Virus record (IMG/VR): IMGVR_UViG_3300032092_003271
Span: 32,920-96,919 of that record
Direction: 5' to 3' (one strand)
Length of the DNA: 64,000 bases
DNA from: a virus
The notes under the pieces are model-generated. The model was not told where the DNA came from and did not search any database. It saw only the letters and a program-made list of their open reading frames with translations. Shown in pieces: positions 8 through 52,254 of this stretch; positions within the stretch are counted from its first letter, which is position 1; each line of letters opens with the position of its first letter. Both the position numbers and the translations under genes were made by a program.

Positions 8-925
8 TTATCCATTTTTTCTTACAATACTATAATTGTTTTCAAAAAATTCAATAGTTTCCTTCAGACCTTCATAGAATGGTGTGAATTTGAAATTTGG
101 TAGATAATTTTTAATTTTAGTATTGTCTGATGGTTTTCTAAACTGTCCATCGGGTTTTGAGGAGTCAAAAATTACATCTCCTCTGAAGTTCATTAATTCT
201 GTTATTACATCAACAACCTCTTTAATCGATATTTCTTCAGATGTTGATAATATTATTGGTTCATTTTCGTTGTAGTTATATAAAACCCATTCTGTTAATT
301 TTGCAACATCTTTACTAAATATAAATTCACGTAAAGGTTTACCTGATCCCCATATCGTAAGTGGTGTTTTATTTTCTCTTGCCAAATAACACTTGTGAAT
401 TAATGCCGGCAATACATGACCATTTTCAAGATCATAGTTGTCATTTGGTCCGTAGATGTTTGTTGGTATAACGGATTTATAATTTAAACCATATTGTTCA
501 TTGTAAGACCTAATTTGAACGTCCGTCATTCTTTTTGCGTACGCATAAGCATCGTTAGAAAAGTGTGGTTCACCTAAGTGAATCTTTTTTTCTGTTAGTG
601 GGTAATCCACTTTGTCAGGAAAAACACAAGTCGATAAAAATGCTACTAAATTTTTTACACCTGAAAGTCTTGCTCCCTCAATTACATTTGTATTCATCAT
701 TATGTTATTATAAAAGAATTCTCCTTTATAATTCATATTAGCGCCAACACCACCAACTTTGGCGGCACAATGTATAATACCGTCAAAACCTCTCAACATT
801 AATCTGTGGGTTTGATCTCTATCGATCAAATCATATTGGTTTGATGATGGTTTAAAATATTGGTCACCAATAAATTCAGAACCTACTAATCCATTCCCAC
901 CTGTGACTAATATCTTATTTCCCAT
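8..925 (-). CDS. fcl: GDP-L-fucose synthase
   Basis: VTGGNGLVG Rossmann motif, HCAAKVGG..AN, STC(V)FP, YAYAK, PTNIYGP.DN, GHVLPAL, WGSGKPLREF; adjacent to gmd. Confidence 0.95.
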   Translation of the reverse strand: MGNKILVTGGNGLVGSEFIGDQYFKPSSNQYDLIDRDQTHRLMLRGFDGIIHCAAKVGGVGANMNYKGEFFYNNIMMNTNVIEGARLSGVKNLVAFLSTCVFPDKVDYPLTEKKIHLGEPHFSNDAYAYAKRMTDVQIRSYNEQYGLNYKSVIPTNIYGPNDNYDLENGHVLPALIHKCYLARENKTPLTIWGSGKPLREFIFSKDVAKLTEWVLYNYNENEPIILSTSEEISIKEVVDVITELMNFRGDVIFDSSKPDGQFRKPSDNTKIKNYLPNFKFTPFYEGLKETIEFFENNYSIVRKNG

Positions 926-1892
926 AATATTCTAACCAATAGTTTATCATTTCATCTAACATACTTTCAAAAGTATATTCAGGTTGCCATGACAACTCTT
1001 TTTTTAATTTAGATGAATCACCTTTTAAATTTTCTAATTCTTCAGGTCTAAAATGTTTTTCATCAATAACAATATGGTCCATATAATCTAAACCTAATGA
1101 GCTGAAAACATAACTACATAGATCTTGAACGGAGTGAGATACCCCTGTCGCACAAACATAGTCGTCAGGTTTATCTGATTGTAACATTAACCACATAGCA
1201 TAAACATAATCTTTTGCGTGACCCCAATCTCTAGTTGCAGATAGATTACCAATATTTAGTTTATCTTGTAAACCAAGACTAATTCTAACAGCGGCTTTAA
1301 CAACTTTGTTAGTCACAAAATTAGTCCCTCTTCTTGGGGACTCGTGATTAAACAAAATACCATTCCAAATCTTCATCCCGTAAGAATTTCTATAGTTTCT
1401 ACAGATATTGTATGAAAATACTTTAGCACACCCATATGGTGATACGGGATTCATTGGTGTAGTTTCTCTTTGGTACCCGTCTTCGTCAATTGTATTTCCA
1501 AACATCTCGGAGGAAGATGCTTGATATATTTTTGAGTGTTGTGAAACCAATCTAACCGCTTCTAATAGATTTAATGTCCCAACACCTGTAACATTTGTTG
1601 TGTATATTGGTTGGTCAAAACTAATTCTAACATGAGACTGCGCCGCTAAATTATAAACCTCATCTGGTTGTACCATTGATAATACTTTAACTAAAGACGC
1701 CATGTCTGTTAAATCGGCGTATTCAAGATGGATTAAATTACCGTCCCTTAAACTTTCAATCCTTGAAGATTGTGTTTCAGAAACAGAATTTCTTTTTACC
1801 GTTCCCCATACTTCATAACCTTTTTCTAAAAGTAATTCGGCAAGATATGAACCATCTTGACCATTTATTCCTGTTATTAATGCTTTTTTCAT
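915..1892 (-). CDS. gmd: GDP-mannose 4,6-dehydratase
   Basis: ALITGINGQDGSYLAE, NLAAQSHV..SF, QASSSEMFG, SPYGCAK, LFNHESPRRG.NFVT, RDWGHAKDYV; start moved to MKKALITG (1892) from the ORF-track 1985. Confidence 0.97.
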   Translation of the reverse strand: MKKALITGINGQDGSYLAELLLEKGYEVWGTVKRNSVSETQSSRIESLRDGNLIHLEYADLTDMASLVKVLSMVQPDEVYNLAAQSHVRISFDQPIYTTNVTGVGTLNLLEAVRLVSQHSKIYQASSSEMFGNTIDEDGYQRETTPMNPVSPYGCAKVFSYNICRNYRNSYGMKIWNGILFNHESPRRGTNFVTNKVVKAAVRISLGLQDKLNIGNLSATRDWGHAKDYVYAMWLMLQSDKPDDYVCATGVSHSVQDLCSYVFSSLGLDYMDHIVIDEKHFRPEELENLKGDSSKLKKELSWQPEYTFESMLDEMINYWLEYYGK

Positions 1893-1893
1893 T

Positions 1894-2496
1894 TTATTTA
1901 TTAAATTTATATAAACATAACCCAACAGAATCATATGGTAAATCATCAAAATCTGAATTCTTTTTATCGGCAAATAATCGTTCAACTAAAGACCATTTTT
2001 CTGAATTTTCAATATAATCTTTTATTTTTATTGATTTTGTGGAATGAGCTTTGTCATACGGTCTATAATGATCCCAATCGTGCATACAAAAATATGTACC
2101 ATCATCAATAAAATTTTCTAAAACAATTATATCATTAAGGGCAACATCAGAATCTTCTGGACCATCAAACATAATAAAATCAGGTATTAAATTATTTTTT
2201 AATAAATCATTTATCATGACATCAGAATTGGTTTTGTAAAATTTTACAAAATCAAAAACATTAAAAAACTCATTATCTGGTTTTCTAACTGGGTCACAAG
2301 TATGTACGGTAGAATTTAGATTATTATCTTTAATTGATTTAGAAATAAAATATGTTGATCCACCACCATTACCAGTACCAACTTCTAAAACTAAGGTTGG
2401 TTTTATTTCTGAGATCCAATTATATAATTTATATCTTTCATATGGTAACATTTCACCATCAAAAATATCATTAAAAAAATTAATTTTTTCAGTCAT
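1894..2496 (-). CDS. class I SAM-dependent methyltransferase (Methyltransf_24-like)
   Basis: VLEVGTGNGGGST motif I, FIMFDG, MHD at the end of the later strand. Confidence 0.75.
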   Translation of the reverse strand: MTEKINFFNDIFDGEMLPYERYKLYNWISEIKPTLVLEVGTGNGGGSTYFISKSIKDNNLNSTVHTCDPVRKPDNEFFNVFDFVKFYKTNSDVMINDLLKNNLIPDFIMFDGPEDSDVALNDIIVLENFIDDGTYFCMHDWDHYRPYDKAHSTKSIKIKDYIENSEKWSLVERLFADKKNSDFDDLPYDSVGLCLYKFNK

Positions 2497-2514
2497 TGTA
2501 TTAATTATTGTGAT

Positions 2515-3051
2515 TTATTTTTTTATTCCAAAGGTAGGACAACCATCTTTAGTTAAGTAAATTATACTTAAATTATTCTCAACACAAAATTCATCAACGG
2601 CTTTAACAACTTGTGGAAATTTAGTTGGGGAATAATCGTGACCAAATATAAAACCTCCGTTTTTAACTTTCATTAAAGATATATTTAAATCTTTTTTCAC
2701 CCCTTCATATGAGTGATCTCCATCAATGTAGATCAAATCAAAATATTCATCAACAAATTCATTTAATATTTTTTCACTATAACCTTTGTGTATAAAAACT
2801 GAATTATCATTTACAAAATTATTTTTTAGTTTTTCATATTCCTCATTAAGATCGGTCCAAACAACATCATCACCATCTTTGTTCCCTGAACACATCATCC
2901 CTTCAAAAATATCAACTAAGTGAAGTTCTTTAGGGTTTATGTTTTCATATATTATTTTGGAAAACTCCCCCTTGAAGACCCCTATTTCACATATAACTAA
3001 ATTATTGTTTAAATCATTAATTAAGTCGTTTCTTGTTTCGTAAATTTTCAT
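2515..3051 (-). CDS. class I SAM-dependent methyltransferase (Methyltransf_24)
   Basis: CEIGVFKGEFS, FDLIYIDGDHSYEGVKKD, GGFIFGHDY, V.KAVDEF. Confidence 0.9.
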   Translation of the reverse strand: MKIYETRNDLINDLNNNLVICEIGVFKGEFSKIIYENINPKELHLVDIFEGMMCSGNKDGDDVVWTDLNEEYEKLKNNFVNDNSVFIHKGYSEKILNEFVDEYFDLIYIDGDHSYEGVKKDLNISLMKVKNGGFIFGHDYSPTKFPQVVKAVDEFCVENNLSIIYLTKDGCPTFGIKK

Positions 3052-3803
3052 TTAAAATTTTTATTATAAAAGTTTATCATTTTTTCATATTTTATTGGGA
3101 AATTTCCAGGTCCACCCGCAAAATGTAACACTATACCGTCATATTCTGTTAAATAATAACCAATGTGAGATATTAAATTTGTAAGTTGGTTATCATAAAT
3201 TTTGTTCCTATATAGATAAACGTTAAAAAAAGGTTGCTCTAAACAGTCGTTCACTAAATGCTGATTATTTTTTAAAAACATATCGATGTTTTTTAAATGA
3301 TTAATCATTATTGGTTTGAACCCAAATATACCGGCATTAATCCCTAATATGTTATTTTTTTGTATTTCTTTTTTTTCAGTATCATTTAAAATATCCCCAC
3401 CCCACCAATTTTCAGACATCAAGGAATTTTCATTACTAACATAAAATTTTTCATTTTCTATAATATTAAACATTTTTTCAGGAGAAGATGTCCATAAAAT
3501 ATCAAGATCTGAAAAAATAATTTTATCATACTCATAAGCTTTATCAAACAAATAAATTTTTAGTTTATTTGAACTTGATTCTAGTAACTCCGATTTATCT
3601 AAAACTAAAAAATACGGTTTTTTCTTAAAATTAATTTCATTTAACAATTCTGTTTCTAAATCAGTTATAAACAAAAAATCACCATCATAACCGTTATAAT
3701 ATAGACTATCAATACAAAGCTTTGCTAACTTTATATAATTAACATTATTACCTAATGTAAAATAGATTAAATTTTTTTCTTTAACATCCTTATTTAAATT
3801 CAT
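3048..3803 (-). CDS. GT-A glycosyltransferase, GT8-like
   Basis: YDKIIFSDLDIL (DxD), INAGIFGF, LEQPFFN, VLHFAG. Confidence 0.75.
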   Translation of the reverse strand: MNLNKDVKEKNLIYFTLGNNVNYIKLAKLCIDSLYYNGYDGDFLFITDLETELLNEINFKKKPYFLVLDKSELLESSSNKLKIYLFDKAYEYDKIIFSDLDILWTSSPEKMFNIIENEKFYVSNENSLMSENWWGGDILNDTEKKEIQKNNILGINAGIFGFKPIMINHLKNIDMFLKNNQHLVNDCLEQPFFNVYLYRNKIYDNQLTNLISHIGYYLTEYDGIVLHFAGGPGNFPIKYEKMINFYNKNFK

Positions 3804-3806
3804 CTT

Positions 3807-4610
3807 TTATAATTTTTTAATTTGTTTATTTATCACCTCAACCCAATATCCATATTCCAAACTCTCCCTACTATTTTTTTGAACTTTTTTTATCTCGTCA
3901 GATATAAAATTAAAATCATATAATTTATTCTGATCATCAATAAAAACAACTGGTAGGTTTTTATATATTTTTTCATATATTAAATGGTAGTCTTGTGAGG
4001 AACCAACCACTATTGGAGTGCCACCTAAATATAAAGTTTCATAAGTCCTAATACACTCAATACCATTTCCTCTAGGTGATACAACACCTAAATATGATTT
4101 TACGTGACTTGCAAATTCCTCAAAACTTATTTCATTATAATGATCTATGTGGTTAGATTCTTCACATATTTTTTTTATTTGGGATCTGAATGAAGGATTG
4201 GTCTCAACTCTAAAATTAGAAATTACCTTATTAACTGATTGACCATTCGGAATTAATTCAGGATTTAATAAATATTTTTTTTTATGAAAAATACCTTCAT
4301 TTATTATCCCATGACCTTCTCTTTCAGGTAACATATCAATTTCTACACCAATAGGTATTGGTGTCACTTTATCACTATGACAATTTGTGTTTGTTGAGAA
4401 AATATGAGTTACGTTTTCGGGACAATATGAAAATAAATTATCATCAAAAGTTATATCACCATTAGCTATGATTAGAACACATTTATTCTTTTTAGATTCA
4501 ATACTTTTAAATTCTTGTAATATAAAATCTATTTTACAAAAAATAACATTTTCGTCATTATGAAAGTCATTACAAAATTTAGTCATCTGTAAAAGATTAT
4601 CTTGTGACAT
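3807..4610 (-). CDS. exostosin/GT47-like glycosyltransferase
   Basis: VVSPRGNGIECIRTYETLYLGGTPIV and LPVVFID match the C-terminal exostosin-like signature. Confidence 0.6.
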   Translation of the reverse strand: MSQDNLLQMTKFCNDFHNDENVIFCKIDFILQEFKSIESKKNKCVLIIANGDITFDDNLFSYCPENVTHIFSTNTNCHSDKVTPIPIGVEIDMLPEREGHGIINEGIFHKKKYLLNPELIPNGQSVNKVISNFRVETNPSFRSQIKKICEESNHIDHYNEISFEEFASHVKSYLGVVSPRGNGIECIRTYETLYLGGTPIVVGSSQDYHLIYEKIYKNLPVVFIDDQNKLYDFNFISDEIKKVQKNSRESLEYGYWVEVINKQIKKL

Positions 4611-4613
4611 AAG

Positions 4614-5624
4614 TTACTTTCTGTATTTTCTATTTGATTTTTCATAAATTTCATCTATCAAAGAAATAACATTCAAAGTCTCTGACATATCAAAATCTTT
4701 TAAGTTTTGATAAACAAATGGATGATTTGGACAAGAACCTTGATAAGAACCGTAATTATTTGGTTCTGTAGATATGTTATATTTTTTTCTGATTTTTTCA
4801 AACTCAGACTGACTTCCGTGAGATAAAAAGTTTGCGGATTCAACTATGTTCAGAGCTTTACCCCCCAACTTTATGTATCCATTTGCGCCTATAACACTTA
4901 AAGAACACTCTAAATTTTGAGGTTCGGCCGCAATTGTAACTTCACAAGTCCCACCAAAATCACCAAAATCAAAAATACTATATATTGTATCCTCAATATC
5001 AACATTAATATGTTTATTTGAATATATTTTTGATGAGTGGACATAAGGTTTACCAAAAAGTTTTTGTAGTACGTCCAAATAATGTATACCCACTTCGTAT
5101 AAAGTTCCACCACCTACATTAGGTAGAGCTCTCCACCCTGTAAAATACTCAAACGGTCTTTGCCATCTTTGTACAAAATTAACAGATCTTATTTTTCCTA
5201 ATAAATTAGAATTTAAAACTTCTCTTAACAATGATACCGTAGGGTTTAATCTAACTTGTAAAACGCAATAAGCCTTTTTATTATTTTTATTTGCGGTTTC
5301 TATTATCTGATCAACCTCTTCTTTAGTAAAAGAAACTGGTTTCTCAACCAAAACATCACAGCCATTTTCTAACGCATATATTGCTTGATTAACGTGAAGT
5401 GAGTTTGGAGTTGCAATAGTTATAAAATTCGAAATACCGCAATCAACTAAATCTTTGTAATTTGTAAAATATTTTACATTATATTTTTTACCTAAGTTTT
5501 TTACTAAATCTTCTTGAATATCACAAACCGCAACCAATTCAAAATCTTCATTTAGTTCAATTGATTCTATGTGTCTTGGTAAAATAGCACCACAACCAAT
5601 TATTGCAACTTTATATTTACTCAT
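4614..5624 (-). CDS. Gfo/Idh/MocA oxidoreductase, WbpB/WlbA-like nucleotide-sugar 3-dehydrogenase
   Basis: IIGCGAI, ATPNSLH, VLVEKP, VLQVRLNP, WQRP.EYF..WR, GGGTLYEVGIHYLD; next to a WbpD-like gene; start moved to MSKYKV (5624). Confidence 0.8.
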   Translation of the reverse strand: MSKYKVAIIGCGAILPRHIESIELNEDFELVAVCDIQEDLVKNLGKKYNVKYFTNYKDLVDCGISNFITIATPNSLHVNQAIYALENGCDVLVEKPVSFTKEEVDQIIETANKNNKKAYCVLQVRLNPTVSLLREVLNSNLLGKIRSVNFVQRWQRPFEYFTGWRALPNVGGGTLYEVGIHYLDVLQKLFGKPYVHSSKIYSNKHINVDIEDTIYSIFDFGDFGGTCEVTIAAEPQNLECSLSVIGANGYIKLGGKALNIVESANFLSHGSQSEFEKIRKKYNISTEPNNYGSYQGSCPNHPFVYQNLKDFDMSETLNVISLIDEIYEKSNRKYRK

Positions 5625-5625
5625 A

Positions 5626-6102
5626 TTATTTATTTTGTTTTTTATATTTTGCTGGATTTCCATAAACTAAACTATCTCTTGGGACATCTTTTGTTACTAC
5701 CGATCCTGCGCCTATCAAACTATTTTCACCAATAGTTACACCACAAATTATAACACTATTGGCCCCAATAGAACACCCTTTTTTAAACAAAGTTTTTTTA
5801 AATCTACCTTCATTCATCCAATCACCGGTTACTTTTGGTGTAAAATCATTTGTTGTTACGGTATTAGGACCAAAAAAAACATCATCTTCCAGTAAAACAC
5901 CTTCATATACTAATGAATTATTTTGAATTTTACAGTTATTCCCAATAACAACATTAGGACCGATATAAACACCTTCACCGATAATACAATTTTTACCTAT
6001 AACCGATCCATTACATATATGGGAAAATGCCCATATTTTAGTACCTTCACCAATATTATCACTTTCTATTATTGAACTTTCGTGGATAAAAACATTTTCC
6101 AT
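5626..6102 (-). CDS. hexapeptide-repeat N-acetyltransferase, WbpD/WlbB-like
   Basis: IGEGTKIWAFSHI, CKIQNN..VYEGV.LEDDVFFGP...TND..P, GCSIGANS, GAGSVVTKDVP, GNPA. Confidence 0.88.
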   Translation of the reverse strand: MENVFIHESSIIESDNIGEGTKIWAFSHICNGSVIGKNCIIGEGVYIGPNVVIGNNCKIQNNSLVYEGVLLEDDVFFGPNTVTTNDFTPKVTGDWMNEGRFKKTLFKKGCSIGANSVIICGVTIGENSLIGAGSVVTKDVPRDSLVYGNPAKYKKQNK

Positions 6103-6104
6103 AA

Positions 6105-6893
6105 TTAAACAAATTTAGGTATATTATTAAATAGACTGTCTAAATAATTTTTATGATTAGAGTATGGTCTACAGGCATGGCATTCAATAAAATGGTTTGA
6201 GTTTATTAAATCTAAATCGTAACTAACTTCATTATTTCTGTGACAATCAATTCTTCTATTTAAAAAATCTTTAGCTAAACTTAAATCTGACACCCTTCCT
6301 GTATTTTTAAATTCATTTAATTTTAAACAAGCATACGCCTCATCGGTACCCCATTTATTACCCCACATGGTTTTCACATTTAAAGAATTTACCTTCAGTA
6401 CTTCCTCCCAAAAAGAGTCTTCAAAATTAAACACATCACAAAAAGTCTGACCTTTTGCAATATGATAAGCTGATGGACTAAATCCACCTTCATCCCATTT
6501 TTTAGGGTGTTTTCCTTCTAATGTATATTGATTGTCTATCAACATAACATAATTATTATCATCAACATTTGATATAGAATCTTTTAGGAAAAATGTACCT
6601 AATGGTATTTGATCAATCCCCATAATGGCACACACTTCATCTTTATAAAATTTTGTAAAATAAAATAAAGCCCAAGTATATTGCCAAGGTAAAATACCAC
6701 TAACTTCCCTCTCCAATATAATATTACCATATTCCTCAGATAAATTTGCGGACTTTAAATTTTCAGGTGTACCAAAAAAAACCAAGGTTGGGTTTATATT
6801 GAATTTTTCTTTATATGTTTTTGACAAATTATTCCAAAAATCATAATAAAGTGGATCATTATTGGAAACTAAAATAACTCTTTCTACTTTCAT
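6105..6893 (-). CDS. putative glycosyltransferase-like protein
   Basis: GIDQIPL DxD-like position, YHIAKG, WGTDE, RIDCHR; lies in the glycan operon. Confidence 0.4.
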   Translation of the reverse strand: MKVERVILVSNNDPLYYDFWNNLSKTYKEKFNINPTLVFFGTPENLKSANLSEEYGNIILEREVSGILPWQYTWALFYFTKFYKDEVCAIMGIDQIPLGTFFLKDSISNVDDNNYVMLIDNQYTLEGKHPKKWDEGGFSPSAYHIAKGQTFCDVFNFEDSFWEEVLKVNSLNVKTMWGNKWGTDEAYACLKLNEFKNTGRVSDLSLAKDFLNRRIDCHRNNEVSYDLDLINSNHFIECHACRPYSNHKNYLDSLFNNIPKFV

Positions 6894-6898
6894 TTTTG

Positions 6899-7708: not shown

Positions 7709-7710
7709 TA

Positions 7711-43952: not shown

Positions 43953-43956
43953 TAAT

Positions 43957-44214
43957 ATGAAAATAACAGATATAACACCAAACGACCCAACAATATATGT
44001 TGGTTTGTTGACAGAAGAACAAAAAAATCAATTAAACGGCCAATGGTTTGCACCTGATAGTTATTTCTATGCGGTACAAGATATAAACGATAATTGGTTT
44101 ATATCAATTATAGAAATTATGAATTGTGTAAATCCTGATTTTTTATGGGTTAAAGATTTAGATTTAATCCCTTATGATCCAAAAATTGATAACATGCCCC
44201 TAATAGAAAGTTAA
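43957..44214 (+). CDS. small hypothetical protein (possible chaperone for the upstream protein)
   Basis: acidic 85-aa ORF tightly following a LamG gene. Confidence 0.5.
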   Translation: MKITDITPNDPTIYVGLLTEEQKNQLNGQWFAPDSYFYAVQDINDNWFISIIEIMNCVNPDFLWVKDLDLIPYDPKIDNMPLIES

Positions 44215-44221
44215 AAATAAA

Positions 44222-45943
44222 ATGCCAAATTTAATTAAATACTCAACAACAGGTGACACTTTATCGTTAAAGAAGGGTAATTTCTTTATTGGTACTGGTG
44301 ATGTCGGTAAAGGACCGACTGAAGTAACCGGATATTGGAATGGTGTCGATGTTCCGAGTGGAGGTTACATTATCCATAAAAACAAATCAGTTAATGGTCC
44401 GGCAATGTGGCTTTGTAAAGATGATGCCGAATTTGTTTATATAACCAACAATATTGAGGGGACCACATTTACAGGTGCAACGCAATCTTTAGTGTATTAT
44501 TCACCTATGAATGATGCGATGGTTTTCAATAGAAATTACAATACGATTACGACAAGTTTACTATCAATTGTTTTGGATCCTAGTTTTACTGTTTCATATC
44601 CTAAGTCAGGAACAACATTTTATAATATTGGTAATAATAACAATTCATTAACATTCAGTTTGTTAAATGGTGTATCCTATTCTTCAGAATCCGGTGGATC
44701 TTTGGTGTTTGATGGTGTTGACGATGAGGTTAGTAGTGACGCGGTTTATACAATGACTTCAGGTACAACTTATGATATTTGGGTTAAAAGGACCTCAAAC
44801 GGGAATGAATTCAACATGATGATGAGTAACTTTATACCATATATGTCATTTAGAGGTACTGGTAGTGGGTCTGACATAAACAGATACCAAGTGGCTTGGT
44901 ATGGAGTGTCAGGAGGTACACAAACACAAAGAAATCTATATTCAACAGGAGCAACTTTTAGTAATAACATATGGTATAATTTTACTTACACTTTATTGTA
45001 TGATTTACAAAATCAACTTGCAACTGGAAGAATTTATATTAACGGAGTTTTTAATGGTACGGATTCAATTTATAGTGATTCTATTTATCAACCATCAAGT
45101 AATAGAAGATTACTATTAGGTAATTATATAAATAACCAATACCCATTTACTGGAAATATTGGTAGATTTTTAGTTTATGAAAGGGTGTTATCTGACTCAG
45201 AAATTATAAATAATTACCAATCTAATTTACCAATAATATTAAATGAAAATATTGTAACAAATGGGTTGGTTAGCTATCTTGATGCCGGATTCAGAACTTC
45301 ATACCCAACAACAGGTACCACTTGGTATGATGTGAGCGGATATGGTCTAAACGGAACATTAACAAATGGTCCGACATATAGCTCATTGGATGGGGGATCA
45401 ATTGTTTTCGACGGTACAAATGATTATGTTAATAGCGTAGGAGCAACAACATCATTTTCATTCATACAAAATACTGGAATTTTTACAATAAGCGCTTGGG
45501 TTAAACTTAATGATTTATCAACCGCAAGATATATTATGGGTAATAATGACGGTCTTACAACAAGTAGAGGGTTCTTTTTGGGATATTCAGGAACTTCTGG
45601 CACATGTTTTTTGGCTATTACACGTGCCCTTTCAAACCAATATACTCTTGATCTAAAAAAACCTAATTTTTTTACTGATAATAATTGGGTATTAGTTACT
45701 TGTGTTGGAAATAGAACAAACTGTCAATTGTATAAAAATGGAATTCCTTTTGATACCCCTGTTAACTTTAGTACCTTTGCAACAACAAACAGTACAAGAG
45801 CATTAAATATTGGTAGAATTAATAGTCTGAATGGTGGCTATTGGTCCGGTAATGTTGCGTTAACTCAGATTTATAATCGAGCTTTATCATCAACAGAAGT
45901 TTTACAAAACTTTAACGCTCAAAAATCAAGATTTGGATTATAA
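44222..45943 (+). CDS. putative virion protein with tandem LamG domains
   Basis: two FDG.DD/ND ... LS.SE...N(Y/F) LamG units. Confidence 0.8.
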   Translation: MPNLIKYSTTGDTLSLKKGNFFIGTGDVGKGPTEVTGYWNGVDVPSGGYIIHKNKSVNGPAMWLCKDDAEFVYITNNIEGTTFTGATQSLVYYSPMNDAMVFNRNYNTITTSLLSIVLDPSFTVSYPKSGTTFYNIGNNNNSLTFSLLNGVSYSSESGGSLVFDGVDDEVSSDAVYTMTSGTTYDIWVKRTSNGNEFNMMMSNFIPYMSFRGTGSGSDINRYQVAWYGVSGGTQTQRNLYSTGATFSNNIWYNFTYTLLYDLQNQLATGRIYINGVFNGTDSIYSDSIYQPSSNRRLLLGNYINNQYPFTGNIGRFLVYERVLSDSEIINNYQSNLPIILNENIVTNGLVSYLDAGFRTSYPTTGTTWYDVSGYGLNGTLTNGPTYSSLDGGSIVFDGTNDYVNSVGATTSFSFIQNTGIFTISAWVKLNDLSTARYIMGNNDGLTTSRGFFLGYSGTSGTCFLAITRALSNQYTLDLKKPNFFTDNNWVLVTCVGNRTNCQLYKNGIPFDTPVNFSTFATTNSTRALNIGRINSLNGGYWSGNVALTQIYNRALSSTEVLQNFNAQKSRFGL

Positions 45944-45957
45944 AAATATTTATTAAT

Positions 45958-46230
45958 ATGGAAACACAAATACAAGAATACGATAACAGAGAATTTATGA
46001 TTTTCTCTGTGACTGAATTAGATCAGATTGATTTTACTCAGGTTTTGGAAACCTCGATAGATACCGTTAGAAAATCAGTTGATGAAACAAAAACATTTGT
46101 TAAGTGGGATGGATCAATGCCTGAGTGTGTAAGTAACCTTACGACAAAAGAAGGTCCTTATAATTACCATGAAATTTTACAAATATTAAATACACCTGAA
46201 TGGACTAACCCAAATCAAATGGAAGGATAA
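45958..46230 (+). CDS. small hypothetical phage protein
   Basis: IDFTQVLETS.DT.RKS.D..KTFVKW..P; TATTTAT upstream. Confidence 0.55.
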   Translation: METQIQEYDNREFMIFSVTELDQIDFTQVLETSIDTVRKSVDETKTFVKWDGSMPECVSNLTTKEGPYNYHEILQILNTPEWTNPNQMEG

Positions 46231-46532
46231 TGCCAAACTATGTCCAAATAAATTCAATATCAGGAACGTCACCATATACAATATTTGTGTGTGATCAGAC
46301 TTTCACATATTGTTATTTAGCTGCGGGACCCGTAATAATTACAACACCATATACATTTATGGTTCCACCACCATTAACTAATACCACAGATGTGATTGTT
46401 AAAATAATAGATTCAAACGGATGTGACACTTGGGTTCCATTATCTTGTGGTACATATTACGGAAAAGAATTTGAGGACTTTGCAATATTTTTATTTCAAG
46501 ATACAAATATTTATTTATTTGAAGGTCAGTAA
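46230..46532 (+). CDS. small hypothetical structural protein
   Basis: coupled ORF; beta-rich with DSNGC motif. Confidence 0.5.
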   Translation: MPNYVQINSISGTSPYTIFVCDQTFTYCYLAAGPVIITTPYTFMVPPPLTNTTDVIVKIIDSNGCDTWVPLSCGTYYGKEFEDFAIFLFQDTNIYLFEGQ

Positions 46533-46543
46533 TATTTATTAGT

Positions 46544-48409
46544 ATGCCAGTTTATAATAGATTAACGGATAGACAACAGGTTTCCGCGGTAACCTTAAAC
46601 GATATCATTCACGTAGTTGTTACAGGAGATACTTCTCAAAGCCCTCAGGGTTCTTCATATTTTGCCCCATTAAGTTATATACAAGCAATCTTGAGTGGTG
46701 CTAGTGGTACACAAGGTACTTCAGGTACATCAGGTACGAGGGGTAGTTCAGGATCTAGTGGTAGTTCAGGTACATCAGGTACGAGGGGTTCATCAGGAAC
46801 ATCAGGTTCTAGTGGTTCTAGTGGTACATCGGGTACGACAGGATCTAGCGGTAGTAGTGGATCATCAGGTAGTAGTGGTACAAGTGGGACTAGCGGTTCA
46901 TCGGGTTCAAGTGGAACTAGCGGATCTAATGGATCTTCAGGTACTTCAGGAACTAGAGGTTCTTCAGGTACTTCGGGATCAAGTGGTACAACCGGATCTT
47001 CAGGTAGTTCAGGCGTATCTTTTGGTACATCAGGTACAAGTGGTTTATCAGGAAACGATTCTTCAAATAGTGGTAGGTGGAGATATGTAGGAGTAGGTAA
47101 TAACCCCTCACCAGGACTTTTTGAGACGGATAATACAACAATATCTTCAATAGCCTTTGTCTACATAAATACACAGGATGAAAACGGTTCAGATTATACT
47201 AGATGGTTTTTAGGGGTAGATACTATACAAGACCTTGGTAACACTGTCTATTTACAAATCACACAAGTAGGTTCTAATAATATTATTGGTATCTGGACAG
47301 TTAGATCCATTACTTCATCAGGTAGTGTTTACGAGTTTGAAGTTGATAATCCAGCACTTGTTGCAGATGGTACTATAACAGATACTTGCACAATATCATG
47401 GGTATTTAATGGACTAAATGGTGAAACAGGATCAAGTGGAATATCCGGATCTTCAGGATCAAGTGGTAGTTCAGGTACTAGAGGTTCATCAGGTAGTTCA
47501 GGATCAAGTGGAATATCCGGATCTTCAGGATCAAGTGGTAGTTCAGGTACTAGAGGTTCATCAGGTAGTTCAGGATCAAGTGGAATATCCGGATCTTCAG
47601 GATCAAGTGGTACTAGTGGTGTAAATGGTACTGAGGGATCTAACGGTAGTAGTGGATCATCAGGTAGTTCAGGGTCTTCAGGTTCAAGTGGATCATCAGG
47701 AACATCCCCTTTACCCTCAGAAGTTTATACAGTAGAAAATACGGGTAACACTAAGTTTTATGTTACTTTTGTTGATTCAAATAACTTAGTTGCTGCACCT
47801 GAAAGTGTTTATACAAATACGGGTATAAGTTACAATCCAAGTACAGATATTTTAGAACTCATAACAGGATATCGAAGTGGTGATGGAACAGTTTCGGCCC
47901 CACCTTATAGTTTTATTGCAGATACTAATACGGGAATATATAGGATTGGTACCGATAATTTAGGTTTTGCAACAAACGGTACTAGACGAATGTCTATTGA
48001 TAGTACCGGTAGAATTTTAATGGGTAATGGTGATGAATCTTCAGGATCAAACTTTATAATTCCTTTAGGTGGGTACGCGGCAACATCTAATGCAACTCCA
48101 GCAACACTTATAACATTAGCAACAGACACTGATGGTGTGTATACTGTAGAGGCGTTTGTTGCGGGGGCCACAGTAACAGGAAGTAATGCGATCGGTGGAA
48201 TTATAAGCGCAACTTTTTTAAATAACGGAGGATCTCTTAGTCTTATCGGATCGGTACAAGGATCGGTACAAGAAAACTATGCGGGATCACCGACCTTCAC
48301 ACTTCTTGCGTCAGGAACTAATATAATATTACAAGTCACAGGAGTTGCGTCGACCACTATAAATTGGTTTGGTAAAATTAAATATATTACGGGATCTAGA
48401 GCCATTTAA
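46544..48409 (+). CDS. fibre-like protein with Gly-Ser/Thr-Ser triplet repeats
   Basis: two (GSS/GTS)n tracts, a domain shared with 21663, and a G...AP.YSF..DTNTGIY...D.LGFATNG..R fibre motif. Confidence 0.75.
   Translation: MPVYNRLTDRQQVSAVTLNDIIHVVVTGDTSQSPQGSSYFAPLSYIQAILSGASGTQGTSGTSGTRGSSGSSGSSGTSGTRGSSGTSGSSGSSGTSGTTGSSGSSGSSGSSGTSGTSGSSGSSGTSGSNGSSGTSGTRGSSGTSGSSGTTGSSGSSGVSFGTSGTSGLSGNDSSNSGRWRYVGVGNNPSPGLFETDNTTISSIAFVYINTQDENGSDYTRWFLGVDTIQDLGNTVYLQITQVGSNNIIGIWTVRSITSSGSVYEFEVDNPALVADGTITDTCTISWVFNGLNGETGSSGISGSSGSSGSSGTRGSSGSSGSSGISGSSGSSGSSGTRGSSGSSGSSGISGSSGSSGTSGVNGTEGSNGSSGSSGSSGSSGSSGSSGTSPLPSEVYTVENTGNTKFYVTFVDSNNLVAAPESVYTNTGISYNPSTDILELITGYRSGDGTVSAPPYSFIADTNTGIYRIGTDNLGFATNGTRRMSIDSTGRILMGNGDESSGSNFIIPLGGYAATSNATPATLITLATDTDGVYTVEAFVAGATVTGSNAIGGIISATFLNNGGSLSLIGSVQGSVQENYAGSPTFTLLASGTNIILQVTGVASTTINWFGKIKYITGSRAI
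47429..47612 (+). repeat. 72-bp exact tandem repeat, about 2.5 copies
   Basis: unit beginning GGATCAAGTGGAATATCC starts at 47429, 47501 and 47573. Confidence 0.9.
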
Positions 48410-48456: not shown

Positions 48457-49701
48457 ATGAGAATATTTGTGCAGATTGCTGCTTATCGTGACCCCCAACT
48501 TATACCAACAATTAAATCTATGTTGGAGAAAGCAAAAAAACCAAAAAATATTATTATTGGTATTGCAAGACAATTTCATCCTGAAGATGGTTTTGATGAT
48601 TTAACTGAATATGAAAATGATGATCGTTTTCGTATTTTAAATATCCCACACACTGAATCAAAAGGCGTTTGTTGGGCAAGACATCAAGTCCAACAATTAT
48701 ATGGAGGTGAAGAATACACACTTCAAATCGATTCTCATATGAGGTTTGAAAAAGATTGGGATGACACTTTAATCAAAATGATTAAAAGATTACAAAAACT
48801 TGGTTATAAAAAACCTTTGTTAACAGGTTACGTTTCATCTTTTGATCCTGATAATGATCCTGAAGGTAGAGTTAATGAACCTTGGAGAATGGCGTTTGAT
48901 AGATTCACACCTGAAGGTGTTGTATTTTTCTTACCTGAGGTAATTCCTGATTGGAATAAAATTAAAGATCCAATTCCTGCAAGATTTTATTCGGCTCACT
49001 TCTGTTTCACTTTAGGACAATTCTCAACTGAAGTACAACACGATCCCGAATTTTATTTTCATGGTGAAGAAATTTCAATAACCGTTAGAGCATATACTCA
49101 TGGTTATGATTTATTCCACCCAAATAAAGTGGTTATTTGGCATGAATACACAAGAAAAGGTAGGACTAAACAATGGGACGATGATAAAGAATGGTATTTA
49201 AAAAACACCGCATGTCATAAAAAGAATAGACAACTTCTTGGTATTGATGGTGAAAAATATGAAGGAGACTATTATGATTGGTTTGGTAAAGAAAGAACTA
49301 TAAGAGATTATGAAAAATATGCCGGATTGCTATTTGAAACAAGAGCAGTACAACAAGATACTATAGATAAAAAATATCCCCCAAACCATTATGATTTTGA
49401 AAATGAAAATGAATGGAAAAAAAGTTTCTCAACAATATTCAAACACTGTATTGATTTAGATTTAAATCAAGTTCCCGAAACAGACTACGATTTTTGGGTT
49501 GTTGCTTTTCACGATCAAGAACATCAAACAATTTTTAGACAAGATGCCGACGCAAACGAAATAATAAGAATAAAGTCAGACCCTGAGGGATATGGTAAAA
49601 TATGGAGAGAATTCAACACAACAAAAATACCATCGTATTGGGTAGTATGGCCCCACTCAATTTCAAAAGATTGGTGTGATAGAATTGTTGGTAATTTATG
49701 A
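48457..49701 (+). CDS. GT60-like polypeptide N-acetylhexosaminyltransferase (Skp1 Gnt1-like)
   Basis: IFVQIAAYRD, A..P....GI..Q, GVCWAR, YTLQIDSHMRF...WD..LI, F.GEE....RAYTHG.D.F.P. Confidence 0.82.
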   Translation: MRIFVQIAAYRDPQLIPTIKSMLEKAKKPKNIIIGIARQFHPEDGFDDLTEYENDDRFRILNIPHTESKGVCWARHQVQQLYGGEEYTLQIDSHMRFEKDWDDTLIKMIKRLQKLGYKKPLLTGYVSSFDPDNDPEGRVNEPWRMAFDRFTPEGVVFFLPEVIPDWNKIKDPIPARFYSAHFCFTLGQFSTEVQHDPEFYFHGEEISITVRAYTHGYDLFHPNKVVIWHEYTRKGRTKQWDDDKEWYLKNTACHKKNRQLLGIDGEKYEGDYYDWFGKERTIRDYEKYAGLLFETRAVQQDTIDKKYPPNHYDFENENEWKKSFSTIFKHCIDLDLNQVPETDYDFWVVAFHDQEHQTIFRQDADANEIIRIKSDPEGYGKIWREFNTTKIPSYWVVWPHSISKDWCDRIVGNL

Positions 49702-50585
49702 GAACACTATTTGTAACTTGTTTATACTCAAAACTTTTTGGATCTGAGTTTGGTGGTAGAGATAGTAGAGACGGTCACTACAAAAATTCACTAAAAAGTC
49801 TTTTAAAGATGTCTGACGCTAAATTTATTTGTTATACGTCAGAAGATCAGATAAATGATTTAAAATCTTTTTTCTATAAACAAAACAAATTCAATGAGGA
49901 CCAAATCCAATTCAAAATCTTTGATTTAAAAAATTGTGAATATCATCAAAAAATTTCTGAATTAAGAAAAACTCAAAGTAATTTACTACACGATAGATGT
50001 TATGAAATACAATATTCTAAATTTTTTTGGTGTTTAAAAAATTGTGACAATTCAGATTTTGATTATGTTTTTTGGATAGATGCCGGATTATCACATAGTG
50101 GATTGATACCACCAAAATATTTAGACCAAACAAAAGGATATTGGGAAAAATATTTTGAGTCTGAATTATTTAACAACAAACTTTTAAATAATTTGATTAA
50201 ACATACTGGTGAACAGATTGTGGTGTGCGCAAAAGAAAATCAAAGAAACCATTGGTCAAAAACTTTACCAAAAAAATATTATAACAATTATAGTTTCGAT
50301 AGACATATTATTGGTGGTTTGTTCGGAGGTAAAAAAGAAAATCTAAAAAACTTTTGTAATTTATTTGACGAAAACATCAAAAATGTTTTAAACAACGAAA
50401 CTGAACTTTTCTTAGAGGAAAACATAATGAGTTTAATGTTCTTTAATAATAATGAATTATTCAATCCACTTCTATTTGACATTTGGTGGCATGAGGAAGA
50501 CTTTATACCTGGTGTTGATTTAAAAGAATTGACCTTAAAAGAAAAAAGTTTTTATAAAATTATAGAAAATCTAAATAATATATAA
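49698..50585 (+). CDS. HtrL/WlaTC-like glycosyltransferase
   Basis: VTCLY, YSKF, FWIDAG, IIGGLFGG, EE.IM. Confidence 0.6.
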   Translation: MRTLFVTCLYSKLFGSEFGGRDSRDGHYKNSLKSLLKMSDAKFICYTSEDQINDLKSFFYKQNKFNEDQIQFKIFDLKNCEYHQKISELRKTQSNLLHDRCYEIQYSKFFWCLKNCDNSDFDYVFWIDAGLSHSGLIPPKYLDQTKGYWEKYFESELFNNKLLNNLIKHTGEQIVVCAKENQRNHWSKTLPKKYYNNYSFDRHIIGGLFGGKKENLKNFCNLFDENIKNVLNNETELFLEENIMSLMFFNNNELFNPLLFDIWWHEEDFIPGVDLKELTLKEKSFYKIIENLNNI

Positions 50586-50586
50586 G

Positions 50587-52254
50587 ATGATAACATTAGT
50601 TACAGGATTATGGGACATTGGTAGGGGAGACCTATCAGAAGGATGGTCAAGATCTTTTGATCATTATTTAAGTAAATTCGAACAACTATTACAAGTAGAT
50701 TGTAATATGATAATTTTTGGTGATAGTGAGTTAGAAAAGTTTGTTAATCAAAGACGAAGTGTAACCAACACACAATTTGTATTAAGAGATTTAAATTGGT
50801 TTAGAAATAATGAATTTTATAATCAAATTCAATCAATAAGAACAAATCCAAAATGGTATAATCTTGCAGGTTGGTTAAAAGACTCAACACAGGCAAGATT
50901 AGAAATGTACAACCCATTAGTAATGTCAAAAATGTTTTTATTACATGATGCGGTATTATTAGATAAATTTAATTCTGAAAAACTATATTGGATTGATGCT
51001 GGCTTAGCAAACACTGTTCACATGGGTTACTTAACTCATGATAAAGTATTACCAAGGATTGATGATCTTTTTACTAATTTTACATTTATTTGTTTTCCAT
51101 ATGTTGCAGATAAAGAAATACATGGTTTTGATATTAATAAAATGGATATCATTACAGGAACAAGAGTCGATAAAGTTTGTAGAGGAGGATTCTTTGGGGG
51201 TCCTGTAAATCTAATAAGACAAATGAATACCCTTTATTATAATTTAATAAAATCAACATTAGAAAGAGGATTAATGGGAACGGAAGAAAGCCTGTTTTCA
51301 ATACTACTATATAACAACCCAACGATAATTGATTATGTCGAGATTGAGTCTAACGGTTTAATTTATAAATTTTTTGAGGATGTAAAGAACAATAACTTAG
51401 TTATTAAATCTTTAAAAAAAGAAAGGGTTATTAAAAATAAAACCAACGGTCAAGTTGGTTTATATGTTATAACATTTAATAGTCCAAAACAATTTGAAAC
51501 TCTTATCAATTCTATGTTACTATATGACTCTGAATTTTTAGAAAAAACTAATAAATTTTTATTAAATAACTCAACCGATCTATCGACAACACCTGAATAT
51601 ATTAAGTTATGTGAACAATATGGATTTGAACATATTAAAAAAGATAATATAGGAATTACAGGTGGTAGAGTATTTGTTGCAGATCATTTTGAAAATTCTG
51701 AAATGGAGTACTATTTGTTTTTTGAAGATGACATGTTTTTCAACATGGGTGCGGATGATGTATGTAAAAATGGGTTTAATAGAAATGTAAGACATCTATA
51801 TAGGAAAGTTCTACAAATTATGAGAAAAGAAAATTTTGATTTTCTTAAATTAAATTATACGGAATTTTACGGTAGTCATGAAAGACAATGGTCTTGGTAT
51901 AATGTAGATCAAGAGTTTAGATCAAAACATTGGCCAAACAATCAAAAACTACCAACACACGGACAAGATCCTAACTCTCCTTTTTTAGAATTTAAAAACA
52001 TAAAATCAGTCGACGGTTTACCATACGCAACAGGTGAGATTTATTTATCTAATTGGCCAATTATTTTATCAAGAGAGGGTAATTACAAGTGTTATATTGA
52101 AACTAAATTTGATCATCCTTACGAACAAACTTTAATGTCTCATTGTTATAAACAAACAATCAAAGGTAGAATTCATGCTGGTTTACTTCTCTTAACTCCA
52201 ACAGAACACAATAGGTTTGACTTCTATGATGGTAAATTGAGAAAAGAATTCTAA
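50587..52254 (+). CDS. HtrL/WlaTC-like domain + GT-A domain fusion
   Basis: TLVTGLWDIGR, YNPLVMSK, YWIDAG, RGGFFGG, TEE; C half YYLFFEDD. Confidence 0.65.
   Translation: MITLVTGLWDIGRGDLSEGWSRSFDHYLSKFEQLLQVDCNMIIFGDSELEKFVNQRRSVTNTQFVLRDLNWFRNNEFYNQIQSIRTNPKWYNLAGWLKDSTQARLEMYNPLVMSKMFLLHDAVLLDKFNSEKLYWIDAGLANTVHMGYLTHDKVLPRIDDLFTNFTFICFPYVADKEIHGFDINKMDIITGTRVDKVCRGGFFGGPVNLIRQMNTLYYNLIKSTLERGLMGTEESLFSILLYNNPTIIDYVEIESNGLIYKFFEDVKNNNLVIKSLKKERVIKNKTNGQVGLYVITFNSPKQFETLINSMLLYDSEFLEKTNKFLLNNSTDLSTTPEYIKLCEQYGFEHIKKDNIGITGGRVFVADHFENSEMEYYLFFEDDMFFNMGADDVCKNGFNRNVRHLYRKVLQIMRKENFDFLKLNYTEFYGSHERQWSWYNVDQEFRSKHWPNNQKLPTHGQDPNSPFLEFKNIKSVDGLPYATGEIYLSNWPIILSREGNYKCYIETKFDHPYEQTLMSHCYKQTIKGRIHAGLLLLTPTEHNRFDFYDGKLRKEF

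Follow-up and report, generated by a model that had tools for sequence, protein, structure and literature searches.

The DNA analysed here (the window) is a stretch of 64,000 nucleotides, bases 32920-96919 of one 96,919-bp virus record (IMGVR_UViG_3300032092_003271; 31% complete according to CheckV), in which genes for glycan-building enzymes alternate with genes for Ser/Thr-rich fibre and lectin-like proteins. The window makes up about two-thirds of the 97-kb contig and was analysed by means of an open reading frame (ORF) map, with 58 ORFs, and Pfam, NCBIfam and PHROG profile scans. We consider it fairly probable that the phage encodes a cytoplasmic protein O-glycosylation system for its own fibre and baseplate-peripheral proteins. 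This reading rests on family memberships, enzyme solubility, synteny, co-variation and the absence of export genes; which proteins are modified, with which sugars, when and to what end is inferred from these findings.

A first-pass annotation of the window had described a candidate autonomous system that builds O-glycans on the virion, on fibres or capsid decorations, rather than on the host. The part that concerns the phage's own fibres is supported by the protein-directed enzyme families, the absence of export genes and the co-variation of enzymes with repeat tracts. The same cannot be said of capsid decorations as targets, since the sole evidence for a virion anchor points to the baseplate and fibres, nor of a single glycan coat built by all four enzyme blocks, nor of the exclusion of host glycans. 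The alternation on which the proposal was founded was reproduced by both the ORF map and the family scans: enzyme blocks at 8-15566 (-), 29121-32354 (+), 32355-42144 (-) and 48457-52254 (+) are interleaved with fibre and lectin blocks at 18330-29062, 42201-48409 and 52282-53646 (all +), and Ser+Thr content is 15-35% in the fibre-block proteins, with 23-35% in the Ser/Thr-rich collagen-like, LamG, repeat-fibre and Thr-Pro-linker types, versus 7-15% in the enzymes.

A core GT60 enzyme and its two-domain partner

The gene at 48457-49701 (+) encodes a member of the glycosyltransferase (GT) family GT60 of polypeptide GlcNAc-transferases, with a match to the Pfam profile PF11397 of 236 bits (gathering score 21) that covers profile positions 95-348 of 352. 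Among 31 dereplicated homologues, those of phages XacN1 and Xoo-sp13 included, 128 of the 414 residues are invariant; they comprise D92-S93-H94, which we take to be the metal-binding D-x-H motif of the GT-A fold. Relatives of the enzyme are encoded by at least 341 IMG/VR contigs, the best 80 being 71-98% identical. These contigs are up to 304 kb long, five of them (272-304 kb) being 91-100% complete by CheckV, and GT60 matches more than 7,000 protein clusters in a metagenome collection. Genes of XacN1, Xoo-sp13, CM1 and RAS14 are 42-47% identical.

Characterised GT60 enzymes come from protists and transfer GlcNAc either onto a hydroxyproline of Skp1, as Gnt1 does, or onto Thr/Ser at the start of mucin-type O-glycans, as in Dictyostelium and Trypanosoma cruzi. 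Neither this contig nor three of the four near-complete relatives that were searched (G001, G003 and G004) encodes a prolyl 4-hydroxylase (P4H)-type oxygenase (PF13640), so Thr/Ser is the likelier acceptor of the phage enzyme and hydroxyproline is unlikely to be a general one. The fourth relative, G002 (IMGVR_UViG_3300027621_000003), is the only one of G001-G004 with such genes; it carries two P4H-type 2-oxoglutarate oxygenase genes beside collagen-like genes at its contig end (288908-291681), and just one (TP)4 tract. The phage enzyme thus resembles the protist ones in its strong PF11397 membership, its invariant D-S-H, its soluble form of about 410 aa (as in Gnt1) and its linkage with Thr-Pro-rich, mucin-like tracts. 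It differs in being encoded by a bacteriophage and in having no prolyl hydroxylase partner in those three relatives, and its activity is predicted.

Across 82 loci the gene order is conserved, running from Ser/Thr-rich fibre genes to GT60, zero to eight variable enzyme genes, an HtrL-like gene, a protein of the 52804 family with its N-terminal domain and finally DNA polymerase. GT60 is present in all 82 and the HtrL-like gene in 79, a conservation about that of the DNA polymerase. The same-strand gene directly 5' of GT60 encodes at least 20% Ser+Thr in 20 of 28 dereplicated loci, compared with 15% of all ORFs; its family differs between phages, and Thr-Pro tracts occur in 14 of the 28. No terminator-like site lies between the fibre gene and GT60, which is weak evidence for co-transcription only. 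A sigma-70 promoter scan did no better than shuffled sequences (59 found, 59.8 expected).

The HtrL/YibB-family enzyme at 50587-52254 (+; PF09612, 61 bits) is, like GT60, a core gene of the lineage. Its AlphaFold (AF2) model, with a predicted local distance difference test score (pLDDT) of 88, contains two GT-A domains and finds by Foldseek the bifunctional two-GT-A enzymes LH3, mimivirus R699, LARGE1, COLGALT1, K4CP (chondroitin polymerase) and PmHS2 (heparosan synthase) at E-values of 1e-11 to 1e-7; such matches of a predicted model indicate architecture only, not the acceptor. PDB sequence searches with GT60 and the HtrL-like enzyme gave no match. Here the variable slot between the two core genes is occupied by a 295-aa ORF (49698-50585, +), which has homologues in 32 loci and is 28-29% identical to XacN1 ORF332.

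A TibC-type domain within a 930-aa fusion

The second candidate for an initiating activity lies in a three-domain enzyme of 930 aa (32355-35147, -), composed of a GT4 domain (aa ~50-260), an Aah/TibC-type O-heptosyltransferase domain (aa 369-703) and an FkbM methyltransferase domain (aa 746-890). The central part scores 288 bits against NCBIfam TIGR04414 ('autotransporter strand-loop-strand O-heptosyltransferase'), above the equivalog cut-off of 200, and matches the TibC structure chains 4RB4/4RAP (E 2e-63) over TibC residues 49-382. The four iron-finger cysteines of TibC, Cys339, 342, 358 and 370, are required for assembly and activity (PMC4358343), and in the HMMER alignment all four align with phage cysteines (C-H-G-C, W-C-P, E-C-T). 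On these features we assign the domain to the BAHT (Aah/TibC) family of protein O-heptosyltransferases, whose known members use ADP-heptose as donor and serine as acceptor, assemble into a dodecameric ring and modify the beta-helical passenger of a self-associating autotransporter encoded alongside.

The residues that TibC modifies, in the cytoplasm, are serines rather than threonines, and they lie in the repetitive passengers of adhesins (PMC4358343). Like TibC and Aah (BAHT; PDB 4RAP/4RB4; PMC4358343), the phage domain reaches the equivalog score, has the four iron-finger cysteines, is soluble and would act in the cytoplasm, and is encoded near a repetitive surface protein that is a predicted Ser acceptor. 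Unlike them, it is phage-encoded and forms the middle of a fusion, with a GT4 domain on one side and an FkbM methyltransferase on the other, whereas TibC and Aah stand alone at about 406 aa; its neighbours are collagen-like, LamG and 17-residue-repeat fibres with no autotransporter or AIDA-type repeat, and the candidate acceptor is a Gly-Ser/Thr-Ser collagen-like array.

Previously unrecognised TibC-type domains were also found in Microcystis phage Mel-JY01 and in the 636-735-kb huge phages LR756501, LR756503 and LR756504. In Mel-JY01 (PP395634; L085 323-8430) the domain is C-terminal in a 1226-aa coding sequence annotated as 'methyltransferase FkbM', and the gene directly before it is labelled 'structural protein'; at 323-2170 (+) an open frame of collagen-like sequence clashes with annotated minus-strand coding sequences. 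Our literature search found no paper that ties TibC-type or GT60 enzymes to phage proteins.

Co-variation of enzymes and repeat tracts

The first-pass annotation had raised the question of whether transferases vary together with Ser/Thr-repeat proteins among related phages. Two particular pairs did so: GT60 and Thr-Pro tracts, and the TibC-like domain and collagen-like repeats. Tracts coding for (Thr-Pro)4 are present in eight of nine GT60-positive records versus none of nine GT60-negative ones. The eight (this contig, five near-complete relatives, XacN1 and Xoo-sp13) have 1-13 tracts each and no match to the reversed control pattern; the nine negative records include five capsid-protein relatives totalling 1.8 Mb. 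The GT60s retrieved by an IMG/VR-wide search for (TP)6 are 28-69% identical to that of the window and hence fall into several clades.

For the second pair, collagen-like repeats (PF01391) occur in all five genomes with a TibC-type domain, either above cut-off or detected by tblastn (this contig, G002, G003, G004 and Mel-JY01), versus none of eight without one, and the domain and repeats are mostly no more than a few kb apart. Within the lineage of the window, the two members G001 (with only a sub-cut-off TibC fragment) and G005 have neither the TibC-type domain nor the collagen-like repeats. This joint presence and absence within one lineage is hard to explain by synteny alone.

Candidate acceptor proteins and a late-type motif

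The repeat proteins are of two kinds. TPTPTP linkers are found in the ORFs starting at 18330, 20604, 52282 and 52804, and proline-free arrays of Gly-Ser/Thr-Ser triplets in those at 21663 and 46544. At 18330-21650 (+) lie two proteins with Thr-Pro linkers, one Cys-rich and 748 aa long, the other 348 aa long with about 90 residues of TP/PT tract, and both genes contain (ACN CCN)4 matches; these are candidate GT60 acceptors. They are followed by a 1005-aa fibre (21663-24680, +; Pfam Collagen, 121 bits; 33.5% Ser+Thr) with three proline-free collagen-like arrays, a candidate acceptor for the TibC-like domain, which matches tail-fibre PHROGs at E-values down to 1e-35. A second collagen-like Gly-Ser/Thr-Ser fibre of 621 aa (35% Ser+Thr) is preceded by a 100-aa domain (together 46230-48409, +) that in relatives forms the N-terminus of Ser/Thr-rich proteins of 440-1428 aa.

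Between and beside these are three small LamG (concanavalin-like) proteins (24682-26821, +; PF13385, 51-59 bits), paralogous to two larger LamG-domain proteins of 583 and 573 aa (42201-45943, +; PF13385; 22-23% Ser+Thr) that match phrog_8510, a virion structural protein. A 713-aa fibre or spike at 26921-29062 (+) matches phrog_6002, 4636 and 23837 (virion structural protein/tail spike) with E-values of 1e-61 to 1e-68 and is built of 17-residue 'NTAIG..NTTG' repeats based on N-T-T-G and N-T-A-I-G (34% self-identity at lag 17). It contains 22 N-x-S/T sites; no HMW1C-type N-glycosyltransferase was seen.

The last fibre block (52282-53646, +) consists of two paralogues, each with a BppU_N-like, putative baseplate-anchor domain of about 130 aa, a Thr/Pro linker and a variable C-terminus; in the 52804 family as a whole the conserved domain of about 130 residues is followed by 0-650 variable ones. 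The N-domain (~120 residues) of the two ORFs has no Pfam hit, PF10651 included. Its top four VIA structural matches are all phage baseplate proteins, namely TP901-1 BppU (Z 8.6; root-mean-square deviation 2.8 over 100 residues), 80alpha (8.5), 3UH8 (7.9) and NF5 (7.9), scores that are only about 1 Z above those of generic Ig-like folds, and a language-model (Atlas) lead points to a cluster with BppU_N in 13% of its members. With their tail-fibre and virion-structural PHROGs, the putative BppU_N-like anchor and the motif described next, the candidate acceptors look like parts of the virion.

The motif [AG]TATTTAT occurs 42 times in the contig, with 25 sense copies lying within 40 nt 5' of a start codon versus 0.9 expected. 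It stands 4-40 nt upstream of 23 of 100 genes, among them those for terminase, portal and head proteins and every Ser/Thr-rich fibre gene of the window, and upstream of none of the roughly 35 enzyme genes. In the window it is located at 18312, 21617, 42181, 45947, 46533, 52261, 52782, 58028 (-), 60256 (-) and 62081, with a spacing of 11 nt to the gene at 18330, 13 nt to that at 42201 and 14-15 nt to those at 52282 and 52804. The motif is probably a late promoter or leaderless-start element of the phage. Judged by its distribution, the repeat proteins are expressed with the structural and presumably late genes, and the enzymes belong to a different class.

Absence of lipid-carrier and export genes

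Pfam scans bear out the earlier observation that the window lacks Wzx, Wzy and polyprenyl-phosphate transferases. It has no Wzx/Wzy-like hydrophobic ORF and no ORF of multi-pass membrane type, and the sole membrane-like candidate, a small DUF2061 protein, peaks at 1.5 on the Kyte-Doolittle scale. Initiating transferases (WbaP PF02397, WecA PF00953) were found neither in the window nor in the five relatives that are 91-100% complete, and those relatives also lack flippase PF01943 and polymerase/ligase PF04932 (Wzx, Wzy_C), Wzz and ABC-type exporters not having been searched for there; control genomes gave positive matches in these searches. Soluble GTs together with missing Wzx and Wzy had been taken to exclude host glycans, an argument that does not hold: O-antigen and core transferases are likewise soluble or peripheral, so that solubility does not discriminate, and phage enzymes could use host carriers and exporters.

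Donor-sugar, tailoring and further glycosyltransferase genes

Profile scans confirmed the families GT60 (236 bits), GT15 (38.6 bits) and Aah/TibC (288 bits), GT11 likewise, as well as the sugar-synthesis and tailoring genes, which comprise GDP-mannose dehydratase, GDP-fucose synthase, methyl-, acetyl- and sulfotransferases and adenosine 5'-phosphosulfate (APS) kinase. The count of about 19 GT-like genes given in the first-pass annotation is an upper bound, because nine genes with 12 GT domains are firm, three are weak matches below Pfam cut-offs (3048-3803, GT8-like; 3807-4610, RXYLT1_C-like; 30211-31089, GT9-like) and for six or seven ORFs no family could be matched. Nine enzyme-block ORFs with weak or no family assignment gave no PHROG match either.

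Block 1, transcribed from the minus strand, begins with genes for GDP-L-fucose supply, a GDP-fucose synthase-like epimerase/reductase (8-925) and a GDP-mannose 4,6-dehydratase (915-1985), identified by PF16363 (408 bits) and PF01370; the NCBIfam GDP-L-fucose synthase match of 230 bits is under its cut-off. Next are two Methyltransf_24/TylF-type sugar O-methyltransferases (1894-3051; PF13578, 30 and 59 bits; PF05711), the two weak GT candidates at 3048-4610 (Pfam E ~0.002), and a sugar 3-dehydrogenase (GFO/IDH/MocA, UDP-GlcNAc 3-dehydrogenase-like) with a hexapeptide N-acetyltransferase (4614-6102; Pfam, with sub-cut-off NF040723 at 117 bits and TIGR03570 at 93 bits). A run of GT genes (6105-12511) contains a GT15 (6899-7708; PF01793, 38.6 bits), a double GT2 (8447-9943; PF13712, 77.8 bits; PF00535, 43.9 bits) and a GT11 fucosyltransferase (10834-11730; PF01531, 47.5 bits), along with four ORFs of no assigned family (6105-6893, 7711-8571, 9940-10833 and 11678-12511), of which the last two are paralogues (42% identical) with a language-model (Atlas) lead to GT2 (score 0.97). 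A small nucleotidyltransferase and a GT (phrog_7162, 159 bits) complete the block (13855-15566); the former has sub-cut-off resemblance to heptose-1-P adenylyltransferase (TIGR02199, 70 bits, cut-off 181) and glycerol-3-P cytidylyltransferase (TIGR01518, 66 bits). The view of block 1 as a glycan operon is right as to these enzymes but overlooks two non-glycan genes in its midst, a dUTPase (12522-13133, PF00692) and a 3'-5' exonuclease (13133-13858, PF10108). The block is variable among relatives, with homologues in just 1-8 of 82 loci.

Block 2 (29121-32354, +) is a sulfation module kept in 11-13 related loci and consists of a sulfotransferase (PF13469, 50 bits), a small ORF, the weak GT9-like gene, an APS kinase (PF01583, 64 bits; TIGR00455, 71 bits), an HxGH nucleotidyltransferase (PF01467) and the DUF2061 protein (PF09834). 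The nucleotidyltransferase, of 132 aa, is the sole ATP sulfurylase candidate and thus APS source (PF01747, E 0.004).

Besides the 930-aa fusion, block 3 (-) encodes at 35149-39566 a 573-aa GT2 (PF00535, 90.7 bits), a NeuD/PglD-type N-acetyltransferase (PF17836; TIGR03570, 172 bits, above cut-off), a 434-aa CmcI/Methyltransf_24 methyltransferase (PF13578) and a 271-aa ORF. It ends with an 865-aa protein (39547-42144) that joins a GT4 domain, an FkbM methyltransferase and a short DegT/PseC-like piece (PF00534, PF05050 and PF01041; NCBIfam). That piece, only about 225 residues long, is too short for a whole aminotransferase, and the arrangement is kept in one relative (887 aa, 61%). The 271-aa ORF (38751-39566) overlaps the 865-aa gene by 20 nt and has no family match.

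Proposed pathway

We propose that upon infection the enzyme operons without the late-type motif would be expressed and their products would make the activated donors GDP-fucose, an acetamido sugar and probably 3'-phosphoadenosine 5'-phosphosulfate (PAPS). Once the late fibre genes are on, the two initiating enzymes would act on repeat regions that are unfolded or still folding, GT60 adding GlcNAc to Thr/Ser of the Thr-Pro linkers and the TibC-like domain adding heptose or a related sugar to Ser of the proline-free Gly-Ser/Thr-Ser arrays. Extension could then fall to the fused GT4 domain, the core dual GT-A enzyme and further, strain-variable transferases, and capping to the methyl-, acetyl- and sulfotransferases. 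Glycans on the fibres may serve in shielding, in adhesion or in stabilising the proline-free triple helix; the last of these, by glycosylation of Ser/Thr, is an attractive but unproven role.

A more specific version, which we regard as speculative and rather improbable, takes the combination of GT60, a two-GT-A enzyme of the LARGE1 and chondroitin/heparosan polymerase architecture, and PAPS and sulfotransferase genes to mean that long, sulfated chains of repeating disaccharides are made on the Thr-Pro linkers. In parallel, TibC-type modification would stabilise the proline-free collagen-like helices, giving a proteoglycan- or mucin-like, strain-variable coat of the baseplate and fibres made with no lipid carrier.

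Weighing the evidence

Several observations count against protein O-glycosylation as the function of these genes. Glycans have yet to be seen on a protein of this lineage. The one experimental hint, which speaks in favour, comes from XacN1, an isolated and distant relative with the GT60 module: two or more of its virion proteins are periodic acid-Schiff-positive, a staining that its authors attribute to phage GTs (PMC5852040), but these bands were not identified. Neither an autotransporter, the known TibC substrate, nor an AIDA-repeat Pfam family is encoded by any of the 58 window ORFs, and a source of ADP-heptose is not established, the sole trace being the weak rfaE-domain-II-like match of the block 1 nucleotidyltransferase. 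The late-type motif is missing from the enzyme operons, two of which are divergent from the fibre genes; interleaving with these proves nothing alone because tail-fibre regions are known hot spots of accessory genes. As to co-variation, the samples are small and phylogenetically clustered; one GT60-positive fragment of 188 kb (G104, 31% complete) has no (TP)4 tract; and the IMG/VR-wide test is marginal, with PF11397 in 10 of 68 (TP)6 records versus 1 of 35 control-repeat records of unmatched size (one-sided p = 0.059). Finally, GDP-fucose synthesis and the GT11, GT9-like and HtrL families are typical of lipopolysaccharide (LPS) or O-antigen loci.

This last point belongs to the main rival, which we hold to be unlikely. 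Most enzymes, above all those of block 1 (GDP-fucose, GT11, GT2, GT15), would remodel the LPS, O-antigen or capsule of the host by way of its carrier, initiating transferase and exporters, and at most GT60 and the TibC-like domain would act on phage proteins. Such remodelling could block superinfection or the re-adsorption of progeny to debris, as proposed for cyanomyovirus LPS gene clusters, and in S-SCSM2R, S-SCSM1 and P-SSM2 comparable clusters with 13 GTs have been read as cell-surface modification (PMC12801897). The acetamido-sugar genes, too, are usual content of an O-antigen or core locus, and both the variability of block 1 and the soluble or peripheral nature of O-antigen transferases would fit. 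It is harder to reconcile with the two best-assigned enzymes being protein-directed, with the initiating phosphotransferase, flippase and polymerase being absent from five near-complete relatives, and with the persistent proximity of the enzymes to Ser/Thr-rich fibre genes throughout the lineage and the co-variation of the two; a lytic jumbo phage would also presumably have little time to rebuild an envelope.

Less likely still is that enzymes and fibres have no functional link, the fibre region being a hypervariable insertion hot spot and the Ser/Thr richness a matter of fibre architecture rather than acceptor function. Cassette content between the conserved genes does vary widely, Ser/Thr-rich triplet fibres are generally common in phages, as their PHROG matches indicate, and in fragment G104 GT60 comes without a TP tract. 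Against this stand the status of GT60 and the dual GT-A enzyme as core genes with 71-98% identity rather than sporadic insertions, the joint gain or loss of TibC-type domains and collagen-like repeats within the lineage, and the joint occurrence of GT60 and TP tracts in at least two distant phage groups and several divergent GT60 clades.

Glycosylation of phage DNA at hydroxymethyl- or hydroxy-pyrimidines as a defence against restriction, as in T-even phages, RB69 and DLP3, is very improbable as the role of some of the transferases: a T4-like ancestry, the dUTPase, exonuclease and nucleotidyltransferase inside block 1, the position of GT60 beside DNA polymerase in this phage and in XacN1, and a thymidylate-synthase-family protein in four of five relatives (a family that supplies 5hmC and 5hoC; PMC13326640) would suit it, but the PF00303 matches of those four (200-303 bits over the full profile) look like ordinary ThyA, the 97-kb contig shows neither a thymidylate-synthase homologue of this kind nor a gene for a hydroxylase or hydroxymethylase, no action on DNA is known for GT60, TibC, GT15, sulfotransferase or O-methyltransferases, and the DNA glycans described so far consist of one to three sugars.

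Comparison with known systems

The closest known arrangement is in the Xanthomonas jumbo phage XacN1, which has a GT60 (45%), the ORF332 homologue (28%) and an HtrL-like dual GT-A enzyme (41%) in the same order, near DNA polymerase and baseplate/fibre genes, and also has TP tracts; its GT60 module adjoins a 3,313-aa protein and baseplate wedge genes. Xoo-sp13 and Stenotrophomonas phages CM1 and RAS14 also have a GT60-containing module. XacN1 differs from our phage in being annotated with two GTs and a carbamoyltransferase only, and in having no TibC-type domain, collagen-like repeats or nearby GDP-fucose or sulfation genes.

In mycobacteriophages, phage-encoded GTs are reported to modify the phages' own structural proteins in the cytoplasm (Freeman et al. 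2023, PMC10527164), a parallel to what is suggested here. There, one to a few GTs are reported to act on the C-termini of capsid and tail-tube subunits, whereas in the present phage the GTs number at least 9-12 and belong to other families, genes for nucleotide-sugar and PAPS synthesis accompany them, and the candidate acceptors lie in the fibres and baseplate periphery.

Giant viruses with chlorovirus capsid glycans, Megavirinae fibril glycans and mimivirus L230/R699 (PMC4691112, PMC10117803, PMC9546862) share with this phage their own nucleotide-sugar pathways, GT-methyltransferase fusions and clade-variable clusters, as well as collagen-like proteins, soluble cytoplasmic enzymes and, as the target, an external fibril layer, the glycans being in our case deduced from genes. 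The window contains both virus-encoded nucleotide-sugar synthesis (GMD, GDP-fucose synthase, sugar dehydrogenase and acetyltransferases) and multi-domain GT/methyltransferase fusions (GT4-TibC-FkbM and GT4-FkbM-DegT). The differences are a bacterial host, a tailed virion and predicted initiation by TibC-type and GT60 enzymes; the collagen-like repeats of the phage have neither Lys nor Pro, and hydroxylysine-type glycosylation is therefore not applicable. BclA of the Bacillus anthracis exosporium (PMC6222408, PMC10050317) is similar as a collagen-like Gly-X-Thr filament that is O-glycosylated in a cytoplasmic compartment with methylated or acylated rare sugars and forms a hair-like outer nap. 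It belongs to a spore and not a virus, its sugars are rhamnose and anthrose, and its enzymes are unrelated.

Self-glycosylation of phage particles is documented only in mycobacteriophages and hinted at for XacN1, elaborate virus-made glycan coats being otherwise a hallmark of giant eukaryotic viruses, and we found no phage system of this size with sulfation described in the literature. What the window adds is the presence of both predicted initiation routes with donor-sugar and sulfation genes in one 52-kb region, an anatomy of conserved frame and variable cassettes, the two-GT-A core partner and the counts of within-lineage co-variation. If the proposal is correct, an abundant freshwater jumbo-phage lineage would build complex, strain-variable and possibly sulfated glycans on its own fibres, using relatives of an E. 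coli adhesin-glycosylating enzyme and of the mucin-initiating enzymes of protists. A hidden layer would thereby be added to how phages recognise their hosts, remain stable and escape grazing or immunity in nature, a large part of the 'auxiliary LPS genes' of big phages would be explained, and the lineage would offer a source of soluble, lipid-independent protein glycosylation enzymes of biotechnological interest.

Source contig and other observations

As judged from its sequence, the window is the accessory 'surface' region in a fragment of an uncultured T4-like jumbo phage from a common environmental, freshwater-type lineage with genomes up to about 300 kb. Upstream on the same contig are genes for ClpB, DnaK, a T4-type large terminase, a gp20-type portal, a gp23-type major capsid protein (646 aa) and PhoH, and the terminase, portal and capsid protein agree with the myophage identity given by the first reading of the sequence. 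Collagen repeats, GT60, GT15, a B-family polymerase and low G+C had brought a giant eukaryotic virus into consideration; that origin was excluded because the contig also encodes the gp20 portal, gp23, T4-type terminase and PhoH. The capsid protein is 41-47% identical to those of the uncultured huge phages LR756508/LR756511, of Mel-JY01 and of Flavobacterium phage immuto, and the B-family polymerase has distant phage relatives only. The contig resembles the freshwater 'moraphages' and may plausibly be one of them; their genomes measure 200-307 kb and encode DnaK and four core glycosyltransferase orthogroups, and their hosts are predicted to be Bacteroidota (PMC12619734). The glycan island itself continues 5' of the window, where L002:13988-15855 encodes GT2 and GT4 enzymes.

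The gp23-type capsid protein (L002:3122-5062) has an insertion of about 240 residues (aa ~150-390; 17% Ser+Thr) with several Cys, including CPVCADC, which lies outside the matched parts of its relatives and may be a surface insertion domain. ClpB (679 aa) and DnaK/HSP70 (618 aa, 858 bits) are adjacent and divergent near the packaging genes (L001:1425-5490). Between enzyme block 1 and the first fibre gene, the stretch 15626-18366 has no family assignment beyond a small WYL-domain protein (16245-16643, -; Pfam, 23 bits), which is kept with its neighbours in eight related loci. The gene at 58055-60250 (-), which lies among structural-looking genes and has the late-type motif upstream, encodes a product of 731 aa in which an entire Fe/Mn superoxide dismutase (Pfam, 139 and 77 bits) is flanked by parts that match no family.

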